Below are positions 9,273 through 62,880 of a stretch of 64,000 nucleotides of DNA, piece after piece. The number at the start of each line of letters is the position of its first letter. Position 1 is the stretch's first letter. The notes under the pieces are model-generated. The model did not search any database. It had not been told where the DNA came from and saw nothing but the letters and a program-made list of their open reading frames with translations. This stretch comes from Eledone cirrhosa (Eukaryota). A program made the translations under genes and the position numbers. The stretch lies in assembly GCA_964016885.1 (NCBI GenBank), contig OZ024762.1:25792001-25856000 (forward strand), read 5' to 3'.

Positions 9273-9684
9273 TATATATATATATATATATAGTTCGGAA
9301 TAACGAAACAAAAAACAAACAAACGAGTAAATCTTACAAATATTGTTAGTTTCACGCTTGGTGCGATGGGGGTGGCTTCGACGTTTCGGGTATAAGCCCT
9401 TCTATATACACGCGTTGGTTACCTGTACAGGCAATATTTATTAGAATGCACAGCAGTTCCCAAAATAAAATGATCTACAGACATAATTCAATTGTATGTA
9501 AATAACCAAAAATGTTTACATAATTCATATAATACATATAAAACAATTTATTTTTATGGATATTTTAAAGATTATTTTGTGTATACATGTTTGGTGGGGG
9601 GGACACCCTGTATATATATATATATATATATATATATATATATACGATATTAATAAATGGAAACTATATTTATAAAACCATATT

Positions 9685-9749
9685 TATTTCATTATACATA
9701 TTTCAGGAATACCAAATTAAATGATGGTATGCCTTCATCAGACAAAATA
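9685..9749 (-). ncRNA. Type I hammerhead ribozyme motif (inverted copy)
   Basis: Reverse complement of the 9857-9921 motif with intact CTGATGA and GAAA. Confidence 0.7.
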
Positions 9750-9856
9750 CAATATATAACAGTTTTACAAATAAGCTTTGACGTACCCTATTAAAATGCA
9801 ACCATTGTTTTTGGAAGTCATCCGGATAGTCTTATTTGTAAAACTGTTATATATTG

Positions 9857-9921
9857 TATTTTGTCTGATGAAGGCATACCATAATTTAATTTGGTATTCC
9901 TGAAATATGTATAATGAAATA
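9857..9921 (+). ncRNA. Type I hammerhead ribozyme motif
   Basis: Stem I TATTTTGT/ATGAAATA; CTGATGA 9865-9871; stem II AGGcATACCA/TGGTATtCCT; GAAA 9902-9905; self-complementary ATATGTAT; AUA cleavage after ~9913. Confidence 0.75.
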
Positions 9922-10375
9922 AATATGGTTTTATAAATATAGTTTCCATTTATTAATATCGTATATCTACTCCAAATACTTGTCGAGTGCTTTATATCAG
10001 TTATAAAAATATTTACTTGTTGTATCCCAACAATTTTAAATAGAACTTTTGCATATATATATGTATATGTATACACACACACACACACACACACAGGCAG
10101 GCAGTTTAAGCTACACTAAAGCTAATGTGCACTTTATATGGACGGCTTTTTAAAGTATGTCTGGTCTAAAACGGCACATATGATTTCATGCCAAAATTGA
10201 TATCATATACATTGCAGTGGTCAAACTTTGTATTGAACAGACAACCAATATATATATATATATAAGGAATTTATATCTAGTAACATTTATATACACACAG
10301 ATGCATATCAATGCTAGCAAATATATAGGTTTTGTCTTATTAACAATGTGGTTCAATGCATGGGGTTGCAGAACA

Positions 10376-10433
10376 ATATGAGAGACGTAAAATAAGAAAA
10401 TTATATAATTTTCTTATTTTACGTCTCTCATAT
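10376..10433. repeat. Perfect ~58-bp palindrome
   Basis: ATATGAGAGACGTAAAATAAGAAAATTAT|ATAATTTTCTTATTTTACGTCTCTCATAT, centred on TATATA, next to (TA)n. Confidence 0.9.
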
Positions 10434-60600: not shown

Positions 60601-62155
60601 AAGGAACTAGCGGCGAATAAAAATAGGAGGGAAAGGGAGTTAACAGATAAACTAGAAGAGGCGATTAGGAGCGGAGACGTGGCCAGAGTGTTAGCGGCGA
60701 GAACGGCGTTGAGCCAGTTCTTTGACGCGAAGCACGAAGGCTGCGTTGTCCGAAGTAAAATACGTGCTTTAGGAAACGAGGGGACCAAAGCTGTTAGCTG
60801 GGCCCGCGTGACAGAAGCCAAGAGTGGGATTAAATCCACCATTCGGTCCTTGAACCTGAGTGGATGTGCGAGGCCTTTCAAAGGCACTTTGCTCGACTGT
60901 TCGGAGGTGGCGGGGGGCCGGACGGGGGTGTGGACTTCGGTCCATACCTCGACGGTCTACCGCGTCTTTCGAGCGGCGAAGCGGAGTGCTGCGAAAGGCC
61001 AATCACAGCCACTAAAATCGGAGAAGCGCTCAGCCAATGCAGCAGACGCAAATCCCCGGGTCTCGATGGTCTACCATACGAACTTTATTTAGCTATGCCG
61101 GTCTTGTTCTCCGAACTCCTCGAGGCTGTCTATTGCAACTGGCAACAGAACGGGAGAATTCCCTGTTCTGTGACCAAGGGCGTGGTCACGCTAGTGAGGA
61201 AGGACGAGAGCAAGGGGGACGACTTAAGTAACTTTAGGCCCATAACTCTGCTGAATGCAGAGTTACAGATTTTGGCCAAGGTGTTGGCGAAGAGGTTGGC
61301 GCTTGTGGTGGGTGGTTTGGTGGGAGACGCGCAGACATGCGCTATCCCGTCCAGGTCCATTCACGACAACCTCCACCTCATGCGATACATCATAGAGAGG
61401 GTTGGCTACGAACCCGGCTTTGGTGGGGCCCTGATCAACTTGGATCAATCTAAGGCGTTCGATAGGGTCGACCATGGTTACCTGGATGCGGTGCTAGCGG
61501 CGGCGGGCTTCGGACCCGTTTTCAGGGGCTGGATTTCTGCCATGCACAGTGGCAACATCTACTCTAGGATTAAAGTAAACGGCTACCTCTCGGAGCCGTT
61601 TCAAATCACCCGATCCATCAGACAGGGGTGCCCCCTCTCCTCCCTTCTGTACGTATTGACTCTCGAGCCACTGCTGCGGAAGTTGGAGCTGCTGCGGGGT
61701 ATACCCCTGGAACCGGGATTACACAAAGCGGTCTTTGAAGGGCCAGGATGGACATGTGATCCTTGAACCTGAGCGGATCTCCGCGGCCTTTCAACGGCGC
61801 TTTGCACGACTGTTCGGGAGGGGCGGCTGGCCGGGTGAGGCCATGGGATTTCGGTCCATACCTCAACGGTCTGCCGCGGCTCTCAGACGGGGAGGCGAAG
61901 TCCTGCGAACGGCCGATTTCAGCTGCTGAGATAGGGGAAGCGCTCAGCAAATGCGGCAAACGCAAATCTCTGGGTCTCGATGGTCTACCATACGAACTTT
62001 ATGTAGCGATGCCGGACTTGTTCTCCGATCTCCTCGAGGCGGTCTACTGCAACTGGAAACAGAACGGGAGAATTCCCAGTTCTGTGACCAAGGGCGTAGT
62101 CACGCTGGTGAGGAAGGACGAGAACAAGGGGGATGACATAGATAACTTCAGGCCC
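57661..62155 (+). mobile_element. Second Tx1/L1-clade LINE, 3'-truncated and rearranged
   Basis: ORF1 VEGRRPACYSCTERGHVKANCP; ORF2 CLNARGL, VGDWN, YLDRF, YSDH, LDQSKAFDRVDH, RQGCPLS; 61733-62155 repeats a diverged version of ~60850-61240. Confidence 0.9.
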
Positions 62156-62172
62156 CAAAATACGGTGATATA

Positions 62173-62408
62173 TCACCGTATTTTTTTACTAAAGTAATTT
62201 TAACCTGATAGTGGGGTTTAGAACCCTCAGAGAAATGGAAAAAGATTAGTATTGGCGTAGATGGGAGTCAATACTCATCTTTTTCCATTTCTCTGGGGGT
62301 TCTAAACCCCACTATCAGGCTAAAATTTCTTTAGTCAAAAAATACGGTGAAAGCTTCTCTTTTCTAATTTCAAACTTGCTCGCTGTTTCAAAACATACTT
62401 ACTTGTCA
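62173..62408 (+). mobile_element. Fold-back mini-element (arms 62173-62254 / 62269-62350, tail to 62408)
   Basis: Inverted arms read directly; homologue at 9121-9270; ends in (TA)n. Confidence 0.75.
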
Positions 62409-62430
62409 TATATATATATATATATATATA

Positions 62431-62880
62431 TGCAAAAGCTGTATTTAAATTGTTGGGATACAACAAGTAAATATTTTTATAACTGATATAAAGCACTCGA
62501 CAAGTATTTGAAGTAGATATACGATATTAATAAATGGAAACTATATTTATAAAACCATATTTATTTCATTATACATATTTCAAGGATACCAAGTTAAATT
62601 ATGGTATGCCTTCATCAGAAAAAATACAATATATATCAGTTTTACAAATAAGCATTGACGTACCCTTTCAAAATGGAGGACATCAGGATAGACTATCCTG
62701 ATGTCCTTCAAAAGTAATGGTCGCATTTTGAAAGGGTACGTCAATGCTTATTTGTAAAACTGATATATATTGTATTTTGTCTGATGAAGGCATACCATAA
62801 TTTAATTTGGTATCCTTGAAATATGTATAATGAAATAAATATGGTTTTATAAATATAGTTTCCATTTATTAATATCGTAT
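62431..62880 (-). mobile_element. Fold-back HHR-bearing PLE-like mini-element (family A)
   Basis: Reverse-orientation copy of 9645-10053; palindrome centred at ~62692; (TA)n on both sides. Confidence 0.82.
62773..62837 (+). ncRNA. Type I hammerhead ribozyme motif (mirror copy ~62561-62627, minus strand)
   Basis: CTGATGA 62781-62787, stem II ATACCA/TGGTAT, GAAA 62818-62821, ATATGTATA^ATGAAATA. Confidence 0.75.

Follow-up and report, generated by a model that had tools for sequence, protein, structure and literature searches.

Fold-backs at (TA)n tracts in a 64,000-nt window of Eledone cirrhosa DNA are probably truncated head-to-head double insertions of Penelope-like elements

In a 64,000-nt stretch of Eledone cirrhosa DNA (assembly GCA_964016885.1, contig OZ024762.1, positions 25,792,001 to 25,856,000), from here on referred to as the window, six short fold-backs lie at or close to (TA)n tracts, and five of them carry hammerhead ribozyme (HHR) folds. 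This raises the question of whether such hairpins are mobile units or are left behind when something else inserts. A preliminary description had read them as non-autonomous elements that share one layout, i.e., (TA)n, short inverted arm, spacer, long arm, tail, and (TA)n, and that are mobilized in trans by Penelope-like elements (PLEs). Each of the six has an inverted arm paired with a longer one (Table 1), but (TA)n is not present at both ends everywhere. It flanks both ends of the fold-backs at 9645-10052, 34086-35070, 40747-41048, and 62432-62877. In the fold-back at 32019-33106, a (GA)n run stands between the left arm and (TA)n, and the tail is interrupted by a SINE (about 32887-33074). 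At 62173-62407, (TA)n is present on the right only, and the left end consists of a few TA letters within a 28-bp palindrome inside a LINE fragment. The elements at 9077..9272, 36905..37502, and 45488..45680 were absent from the original list.

Table 1. PLE-related and ribozyme-bearing features of the window (HHR, hammerhead ribozyme; EN, endonuclease)
Feature	Position	Strand	Arms or extent	HHR	Predicted identity and remarks
Family A fold-back	9645..10052		short-ended inverted arm 9645-9830 (-); long-ended arm 9831-10052 (+)	type-I cores 9741(-), 9865(+)	3' end of coding Hydra-type PLE
Family A, second fold-back	62432..62877		opposite orientation, different junction	62781(+) intact; 62618(-) stem I damaged	
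Family B fold-back, diverged subfamily	32019..33106		short inverted arm 32019-32105; long arm	U4C, 32654(+), in long arm	3' end of coding Hydra-type PLE; 32106-32450 mapped to parent in part
Family B copy	51550..52040		very short inverted piece 51550-51591	U4C, 51811(+)	
Family C fold-back	34086..35070		inverted arm 34086-34820 (parent 3' UTR); long-ended arm 34821-35070	U4A, 34245(-), in inverted arm; 3' half only in long-ended arm	3' end of coding Hydra-type PLE
Family D fold-back	40747..41048		long-ended arm 40747-41020 (sense on -); 28-nt short arm	A9C, about 40926-40969	3' end of coding sibling of 41-kb PLE
41-kb PLE, head-to-head pair	41100..44962		long-ended inverted arm 41100-42148; short-ended arm 42146-44962	41384(-), 44736(+)	C-terminal EN; CX4CxxC linker, CCHH; 5'-truncated, frame broken
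Family E fold-back	62173..62407		short-ended inverted arm 62173-62269; long-ended arm 62267-62407	none	3' part of ~260-nt closed non-coding tandem unit; tRNA module cut off here
Family E' (sister of E)	9077..9272	+	single long-ended arm, starts in anticodon arm of tRNA module		~290-nt tandem unit
Family H	18195..18490	-	one unit of 316-nt closed tandem repeat	type-I, 18345(-)	
H-related unit, 75% alike	37596..37894	+		U3-A8 variant, 37743(+)	
Family F fold-back	36905..37502				3' end of coding PLE: CxxCxxC-type linker, CCHH endonuclease
Family I fold-back	45488..45680			U3-A8, in long copy L288	long copy L288 reaches Hydra-type EN C-terminus
Family G 3' end	16712..16836	-		16830(-)	
Further 3' end	18576..18720	-		perfect type-I, 18671(-)	
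F-related 3' end	45023..45240	-		degenerate U3-A8-type HHR-like fold near 45164-45215	

Among genomic copies, the outer ends of the fold-backs are fixed, with long and short ends 36 to 165 nt apart, and the inner junctions vary between copies. We found no separate spacer of the kind proposed in the layout: what had been called a spacer is what 5' truncation has left of one arm or of both, as exemplified by 34086-34820, which matches the 3' UTR of the parent element in reverse orientation. In family A, the spacer spans 86 to 657 nt in the parsed loci, 25 of 30. TA adjoins 98 of 101 outer ends in family A; in families E and E', it adjoins 97 of 142, compared to 194 of 1158 background windows.

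Based on sequence, families A, B, C, and D, to which five of the six listed elements belong, represent 3' ends of coding PLEs. Longer genomic copies continue into EN or RT+EN frames in three Hydra-type families and one Neptune/Nematis-type family. In family A, a 680-aa RT+GIY-YIG frame lies about 1.9 kb upstream; in the parent copy L094, it is a single ORF in which motifs of an RT and, at the C-terminus, of a GIY-YIG-type EN were recognized by eye. This parent (L094, L086) has DKT, a CxCX5C linker, and CxxC and CxH around a conserved E and N, lacks CCHH, has LWK in place of RWK, and contains a GIKF stretch. The canonical HHR and the insertion into (TA)n are both as in the Hydra clade. EN sequence lies collinear upstream in 6 of 30 family C loci, three long copies of family B open with the EN C-terminus, and in L159 and L176 the family D sequence directly adjoins EN sequence. 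The parents of B, C, D, F, and I were read at the EN end only, that of I from a single copy, and coding parents were traced for A, B, C, D, F, and I but not for G or the 3' ends at 18576..18720 and 45023..45240. A CX2-5CxxC linker together with a CCHH endonuclease is present in the 41-kb family (L095-L097), which has 16,657 candidates and open frames of up to about 1,100 aa, and in D and F (L159, L276). From these motifs, the 41-kb element, D, and F are predicted to be Neptune/Nematis-type PLEs, and A, B, C, and I to be Hydra-type PLEs, with B, C, and I assigned from the EN end. Pfam gave no RT or GIY-YIG match in three parent frames, a PDB search gave weak RT matches for one of two parent proteins (E 0.07-0.13), pairwise BLAST likewise left the parent proteins unnamed, and none of the 21 full-length homologues of the family A parent protein is named as a PLE. 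Because Pfam was silent and the PDB matches were weak, the PLE assignment is based on motifs by comparison with the accessible part of Craig et al. 2021 (PMC8557442). We also considered A, B, C, and D as non-autonomous elements with a defined 5' boundary and rejected this, having found coding parents and variable inner junctions.

How, then, do two arms of one element come to lie head to head? In 53 loci of family E picked by position, 36 insertions had one long and one short end (long+short), 9 were short+short, none was long+long, and 8 were unclassed, while about 9 long+long pairs would be expected from the end counts if the two ends were independent. Some of the short+short calls come from breaks in the alignment of a third subfamily. 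Long+short insertions made up 31/34 rows in A, 11/12 in B, 14/15 in C, 9/10 in D, 9/10 in F, and 23/25 in I, rows that were picked with tail-bearing queries and are informative only for the lack of long+long pairs. At one family A locus (L035/L038), both ends are short. The long+short rule extends over eight unrelated families. We consider it probable that the fold-backs arose when 3' ends of coding PLEs were inserted twice, head to head and 5'-truncated, and that H and E/E' take the same route. After nicking a (TA)n tract on both strands, the enzyme would copy the RNA twice, yielding two target-primed cDNAs, one from a distal and one from a proximal internal RNA start site; both would stop early and be joined at their truncated ends. 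The hairpin would be a dead-end product of insertion rather than a mobile unit, because junctions vary from copy to copy and full-size ORF pairs have the same layout, and the hammerheads would ride along in the pseudo-LTR.

The reading that each fold-back is a defined non-autonomous hairpin element with a ribozyme on each strand is very improbable. Very short fold-backs do dominate some families and can look uniform, as in all 25 top matches of family I, and genuine non-coding passengers occur (H and E). However, A, B, C, D, F, and I have coding parents, full-size ORF-bearing copies (L085, L086, L094, L096) form head-to-head pairs of identical layout, and the per-copy variation of the junctions largely refutes this reading already. 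Moreover, intact cores are present on both arms in family A only, and a head-to-head transcript would hold one sense ribozyme plus its complement. An alternative that we judge unlikely starts from a single cDNA, to which the inverted arm would be added later through template switching onto the new DNA or fold-back second-strand synthesis, resolution of the intermediate determining the tail. The accessible part of PMC8557442 ascribes the tail to EN-mediated resolution, junctions in E cluster at self-complementary spots, and the rare variants common to both arms (3.05 per kb within an insertion versus 0.26 between insertions), which speak for the double insertion, also fit a single cDNA. Yet the arm extending further 5' may be either of the two, an outcome hard to obtain by copying one cDNA. 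The two ends correspond to a pair of RNA start sites determined in vitro (PMC11167929), and there are chimeric pairs with arms of two families, e.g., L461, in which a short E arm is joined to a long-tailed Hydra-type arm.

The proposed double insertion resembles what was observed in vitro for Poseidon of Anolis (PAc) (Frangieh et al. 2024, PMC11167929), in which two internal RT start sites define the tail, both strands of an AT-rich target are cut and extended, a dimer is predicted, and the HHR is dispensable for insertion. PAc belongs to another clade, the two sites were not linked there to the two arms of one insertion, and its starts were reported to be non-homologous to the target, whereas several families here have a TA-like sequence of 3-6 nt at the start site. 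With regard to the Hydra clade, the family A parent shares DKT, CxCX5C, CxxC, CxH, the canonical HHR, and (TA)n with the elements in the accessible part of PMC8557442; B, C, and I have the same EN C-terminus, and the inverted truncated copy and the tail are as described there. The families here differ in that their tails are 78-165 nt rather than 30-40, their 3' UTRs are 1.2-1.9 kb, and A retains a GxKF-like motif. Opposite-strand hammerhead pairs have been published before, as have inverted 5'-truncated copies, tails, and TA targeting; the part of PMC8557442 that we consulted describes the last three and names the formation of inverted, tailed PLE insertions as an open question, and strict long+short pairing is not stated in it. 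These Hydra families may be listed in its supplements. A literature search with subscription papers and Repbase outside its scope found no description of twin priming in PLEs.

We next consider the hammerheads. In the window, nine perfect-core type-I folds reached a score of at least 10, compared to a mean of 0.44 and a maximum of 1 in 50 local dinucleotide shuffles, and stem covariation was found across families. On both counts the earlier claim of real ribozyme motifs was borne out, and the hammerheads in the window are genuine as sequence folds. Rfam gave no hammerhead at E<=1 among the 150 of 156 window matches listed, which are mostly miRNA matches driven by microsatellites. The strict form of our descriptor missed variants, and it was loosened to accept an additional base after A9, a 10.1-11.1 mismatch, and a U3-A8 core. 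Because the loosest descriptor was noisy (25 matches versus a shuffle mean of 10, at a score of at least 10 with one mismatch), perfect-core counts alone were used. Type-I HHRs had been assigned to five fold-backs; the cores are intact in family A, but they are altered in B (U4C, with an A9U core on the left arm of 32019-33106), C (U4A, left arm only), and D (A9C, left arm only, minus strand), and an intact CTGAGGA core is present in 16 of 30 family D copies. The claim of a ribozyme on each strand accordingly stands, with intact cores, for A only. An HHR-like motif in the tail of D and the 41-kb element (40773-40828, 41113-41157) was rejected as a ribozyme, its core being broken and antisense to the ORF. 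Among non-folded relatives, the HHRs at 16830(-), 18345(-), and 51811(+) were recovered, that at 37743(+) is a U3-A8 variant, and the unscored one at 45164 resembles, by eye, a U3-A8 variant with an A9G change. The coding PLE at 41.1-45.0 kb has the layout and the HHRs described for it, but it is truncated and its frame is broken. According to the accessible part of Cervera and de la Pena 2014 (PMC4209133), minimal HHRs of PLEs similarly have an extra base after A9, a palindromic stem III, and U3-A8 variants, occur as dispersed motifs from truncated PLEs, and form opposite-strand pairs 100-700 bp apart, as here. By comparison, several families here have predicted folds with a 10.1-11.1 mismatch, U4C cores, or long stems II and III.

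Thus, of the earlier proposal that PLEs mobilize several ribozyme families in trans into (TA)n, the PLE machinery, the (TA)n targeting, and the hammerheads hold, whereas non-autonomous families moving as hairpins do not. Unlike A, B, C, and D, the 316-nt unit H and the tRNA unit E are genuine passengers. Family H has a period of 316 nt and an HHR fold in 21 of 25 loci, 17 of them with a perfect core; judged from its sequence, it is a non-coding hammerhead retrozyme. It is like the metazoan non-LTR retrozymes (PMC7229834; bioRxiv 10.64898/2026.07.22.740005; PMC7761336, each in its accessible part) in being a non-coding tandem with one type-I HHR per unit, and mobilization by PLEs was proposed for that class in the same sources. 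The only truly non-autonomous element among the six fold-backs, E, is the one without a hammerhead.

The E unit is closed, with the end of a previous unit preceding it in 30/30 head-matched loci. No PLE frame ended upstream of it in 322 loci (29 with some PLE match), and no autonomous partner was found by sequence in about 1.1 Mb of loci. We detected no consistent sense-strand hammerhead with CUGANGA or UUGANAA cores in 90 E/E' loci, no core 7-mer common to E and E' on the sense strand, and no ribozyme by Rfam. A non-circularly permuted hammerhead (PMC10085705, accessible part), for which the core block alone was sought, was rejected for lack of a block common to the E and E' sense strands. 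What the unit contains is a tRNA module with A and B boxes (Rfam RF00005, 31-43 bits versus a cut-off of 29), called as tRNA by ARAGORN in 30/60 E and 11/30 E' loci, with T at the invariant B-box A58 in E'. E and E' agree in 62/71 columns of the module versus 77/134 downstream (p 9e-6), with pair-keeping changes in the acceptor and D stems; no phage record covered 80% of the module. A T5 run, which like longer runs should stop Pol III, lies 3' of the module in 185/244 copies, and E' has longer runs. We also considered a tRNA-derived SINE starting at the tRNA head, with a LINE-type 3' tail and monomer insertions, and did not find these features; E and E' are circularly permuted tandem units with two internal 3' end zones and head-to-head arms. 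Three partly overlapping samples of E were used to map 5' ends. Within 12 nt of tRNA +1 lie 26/79 ends in one sample (rate ratio 5.5) and 15/70 in another (ratio 2.1, p 0.015), and ends fall off sharply beyond -6 in two of the three. The tail-anchored sample had 0/23 ends in the interval around +1 and four slightly further in, at +7/+8; most often it stopped in the T-arm/acceptor 3' strand (49/98).

Mobilization of E by PLE machinery is very probable. Its most likely template, at about even odds, would be a read-through transcript that Pol III starts 3-6 nt before the tRNA module. We propose only tentatively the full reading, in which E/E' would be a Pol III-driven, ribozyme-free, SINE-like PLE parasite with a tRNA promoter and with two internal RT start sites provided by tandem read-through, inserted at two-strand TA breaks by a two-site RT dimer, with chimeric arms possible. 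It is rather doubtful that the module is a passively captured sequence, with templates from Pol II read-through and the pile-up of ends from RT pausing or junction microhomology. The T5-T9 runs after the module, the A58 change in E', and the tail-anchored sample without pile-up speak for capture, and E/E' recombination could explain the higher module identity; against it, the module is conserved with pair-keeping changes, and the drop of 5' ends beyond -6 recurs in two samples. Less likely still is a processing signal in place of the hammerhead, in which RNase P would cut tandem transcripts at tRNA +1, a leader-trailer stem would splint the ends, and the circle would be copied round. There is a stem of about 20 bp (z -3.2 and -4.4 in sense versus -0.7 and -2.2 in antisense), shorter in E than in E' by 2 nt on both sides, arrays of up to four units have rare variants in common, and, in the accessible part of PMC8457004, a comparable stem promotes RNase P cutting in MALAT1. 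However, MALAT1 needs a -1 bulge there and continuous extension lowers cutting, while the bulge predicted in E is on the 3' side; many 5' ends retain 3-6 leader bases that a cut at +1 would remove, and common polymorphic sites are in some cases not uniform among the units of one insertion.

Among known systems, again as far as their accessible parts go, the retrozymes cited above resemble E in the closed tandem unit and size range but were described without promoters and with an HHR, whereas E has the tRNA module and no hammerhead. The schistosome SINE-like hammerhead repeats (PMC6765202) are alike in a Pol III-type promoter within a tandem unit and in single copies depending on the upstream unit, but they carry a hammerhead, and no PLE footprint is described in that part. 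Non-autonomous elements of Chlamys, e.g., MRC1 (PMC8557442), are likewise non-coding PLE passengers in head-to-tail arrays; their 3' end resembles autonomous families and no tRNA module is mentioned in the part consulted, whereas we found no autonomous look-alike of E. A search of the literature, subscription papers and Repbase being outside its scope, found no tRNA-headed, ribozyme-free PLE passenger, and E may sit unnamed among the about 900 unclassified SINE families of the repeat library in PMC13282606, as described in its accessible part.

Together with the in vitro start sites, the long+short rule makes a direct prediction, namely one start site per target strand. PLE stumps of this kind are prone to misannotation as MITEs, SINEs, or tRNA genes, as illustrated by hundreds of false tRNA-Ser/Ala calls. 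The 260-nt E unit offers a minimal template for mapping recognition by the PLE RT, and family E indicates that a ribozyme is not needed by a PLE passenger. If the tentative reading of E is true, it would carry SINE-type parasitism over from LINEs to PLEs.

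The preliminary description had presented at least six fold-backs as a population of non-autonomous hairpin elements with a hammerhead (HHR) on each strand, moved into (TA)n by a Penelope-like element (PLE). The window is AT-rich animal DNA dense in (TA)n tracts, from a 3.0-Gb assembly, and all six listed elements are present in it, each combining a longer arm with an inverted one. The view of them as a non-autonomous population did not hold, as families A to D have coding parents and the junctions of A vary. Across 30 copies of family A from the genome, the outer ends sit at two fixed points 84 nt from each other, and the inner junction, where the arms meet, varies; the spacer measures 86 to 657 nt in the 25 copies parsed. 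Going upstream, the longest A copies run through a 1.9-kb 3' UTR into a frame, at most 680 aa long, for reverse transcriptase (RT) and endonuclease; full-size head-to-head pairs are also present. The motifs of this parent agree with the Hydra clade definition in the available text of PMC8557442, with two exceptions: LWK stands where RWK is expected, and GIKF is kept. Upstream of B and C lies a Hydra-type endonuclease end of the same kind as in A, and upstream of D an endonuclease ~70% alike to that of the 41-kb PLE; the family of this PLE includes open frames of ~1,100 aa that carry CCHH and a CX4CxxC linker. Because A, B, C, and D trace to coding PLE frames, all but one of the six fold-backs are, judged by their sequence, stumps of coding PLEs. 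Two fold-backs absent from the initial list, F and I, also have coding parents, that of I read from one copy. Pfam and PDB searches put no name on the parent proteins, and their putative assignment to PLEs is based on motifs. For one of them, the sole homologue that bears a species name comes from Argonauta hians, pointing to an octopod.

At the level of sequence, the hammerhead claim was borne out by both an excess over shuffles and stem covariation. An Rfam search of the window returned no hammerhead among the matches listed; using a type-I descriptor, we predicted nine perfect-core folds (score ≥10), compared with a mean of 0.44 and a maximum of 1 in 50 shuffles of the window. In 327 fetched loci (1.16 Mb), which overlap and over-represent family A, there were 263 descriptor matches versus 2 to 9 in three shuffles. 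These matches form 27 clusters with two or more members, among which the pair types of stem I differ while pairing is kept; stem III is for the most part palindromic. A U3-A8 core variant spans at least three unrelated families (an H relative, I, and one related to F), once with a long palindromic stem III. A relative of a degenerate hammerhead in the window is present in locus L262 as several intact-core copies in both orientations, possibly another retrozyme. The tails of D and the 41-kb family contain a short hairpin whose antisense strand resembles one half of a hammerhead, and a short motif of similar kind lies close to the long end of E; this hairpin may mark an RT start signal.

The two fixed outer 3' ends, here called long and short, enclose the tail. 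Long and short outer ends were paired in 31/34 rows for A, 11/12 for B, 14/15 for C, 9/10 for D, 9/10 for F, and 23/25 for I. The queries were tail-bearing and a few loci are duplicates, so what these counts usefully show is the lack of a second long arm. One A locus is short plus short, and two E' rows scored as long plus long are tandem arrays in which the real outer end is short. For E, 80 stretches picked by position gave 53 pairs, of which 36 were long plus short, 9 short plus short, none long plus long, and 8 unclassed. The farther 5' reach is found in either arm, and rare variants are common to both arms 12 times more often within an insertion than between insertions. According to PMC11167929, the tail is set by two internal start sites, both strands are cut and extended, and a dimer is predicted. 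We infer that each insertion would consist of two target-primed cDNAs, one per internal start site. The layout, with a 5'-truncated copy in inverted orientation, a tail, and a preference for TA, is already reported in the portion of PMC8557442 available, and that of PMC4209133 attributes opposite-strand hammerhead pairs 100 to 700 bp apart to truncated PLEs; in the accessible parts of the PLE literature on twin priming, we found no statement of the long-plus-short rule. At many fetched loci, 3' ends of different PLE families are stacked in single (TA)n tracts, which suggests that every insertion provides targets for later ones.

Of 92 E arms that lack an E partner, three form head-to-head junctions with other PLE families; in L461, the short E end is paired with a long Hydra-type end. 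Such chimeras may record a single enzyme complex loaded with two RNAs; loss of the DNA between adjacent insertions would account for them as well.

Features in the window and in loci fetched from the same genome (L-numbers)
Position	Strand	Feature
9077-9272		E', sister family of E
9293-9610		Island with (TA)n on its flanks, lying between E' and A; few relatives in fetched loci, related sequence in the L307 flank
9645; 62432		Family A
13260-14200		GC-rich short-period tandem array, open in several frames
14600-16200; 20596; 27645; 32887; 49595		Abundant tRNA-type SINE; partial copies cluster at 14.6-16.2 kb
18195-18490		H, hammerhead unit
19800-29400; 58200-62200		Several broken L1/Tx1-like LINE copies; RVT_1 at 24966-26006
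32019		Family B
33684 (within 33600-33800)	+	Degenerate hammerhead
34086		Family C
36905		Family F
37743; L288; L289; L096 flank		U3-A8 core-variant hammerheads
39385-40527	+	C-terminal fragment related to the element at 52977-56499
40747		Family D
40773-40828; 41113-41157		Tail hairpin, D and 41-kb family
41100-44962		41-kb PLE, 5'-truncated and frame-broken
45488		Family I
52977-56499	-	R2/NeSL-like non-LTR element, open 805-aa RT frame (Pfam RVT_1 and zf-RVT)
62173-62407		Family E, inserted at ~62157 at the end of a broken L1/Tx1-like LINE copy
L461:1450-1790; L486:1450-2250; L507:511-1224		Chimeric head-to-head insertions, E with Hydra-type or D-type PLE

Two passengers are closed units. 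H, a 316-nt tandem unit whose hammerhead fold is seen in 21/25 loci, is by its sequence a retrozyme of the known kind. E is a unit of ~260 nt in arrays of up to four; in 30/30 head-matched loci, the sequence just before its head is the end of a preceding unit, and no PLE frame ends upstream of it in 322 loci. The tRNA module of E scores above the Rfam cut-off, and exact motif searches hit the module 458 times and a tail motif 2,351 times (reversed controls, 0). E and E' agree at 62/71 columns in the module and 77/134 downstream, figures that depend on the alignment. Leader and trailer pair into an ~20-bp acceptor-stem extension favoured on the sense strand; relative to E', each side of the stem in E is shorter by 2 nt. 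E would work like a retrozyme or a SINE riding PLE enzymes; it differs from retrozymes in that descriptor and core searches found no hammerhead in E or E', and from ordinary SINEs in failing the head-and-tail test. In the literature searched, we did not find a ribozyme-free, tRNA-headed PLE passenger described; the nearest published systems are schistosome Pol III hammerhead repeats, as presented in the available part of PMC6765202, and non-autonomous Chlamys elements.

How the tRNA module acts was approached through the 5' ends of E arms in three partly overlapping samples. Within 12 nt of tRNA +1 lay 26 of 79 ends in the D-arm-anchored sample (rate ratio of 5.5 versus upstream) and 15 of 70 in the T-arm-anchored sample (ratio of 2.1, p = 0.015; alignment breaks in a third subfamily inflate the upstream rate here). 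In both, the ends peak near +1 and -3/-4 and drop off past -6. In the tail-anchored sample, 0 of 23 ends were near +1 and 4 were at +7/+8, the main stop being the T-arm/acceptor 3' strand (49/98). That Pol III read-through makes the E template has, in our estimate, an even chance: a Pol III start fits the leader bases kept at E 5' ends better than an RNase P cut, while 185 of 244 copies have a T5 run after the module and B-box A58 is lost in E'. A T5 run should terminate Pol III. Passive capture of the module is rather unlikely, and an RNase P/circle route is improbable: many E 5' ends retain leader bases, and, by analogy with MALAT1, an unbroken acceptor extension lacking a bulge at -1 would lower cutting (available text of PMC8457004).

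The main finding would work like Hydra-clade PLE insertion, and family A largely tests as such. Most of the interest lies in a testable two-end rule and in family E.
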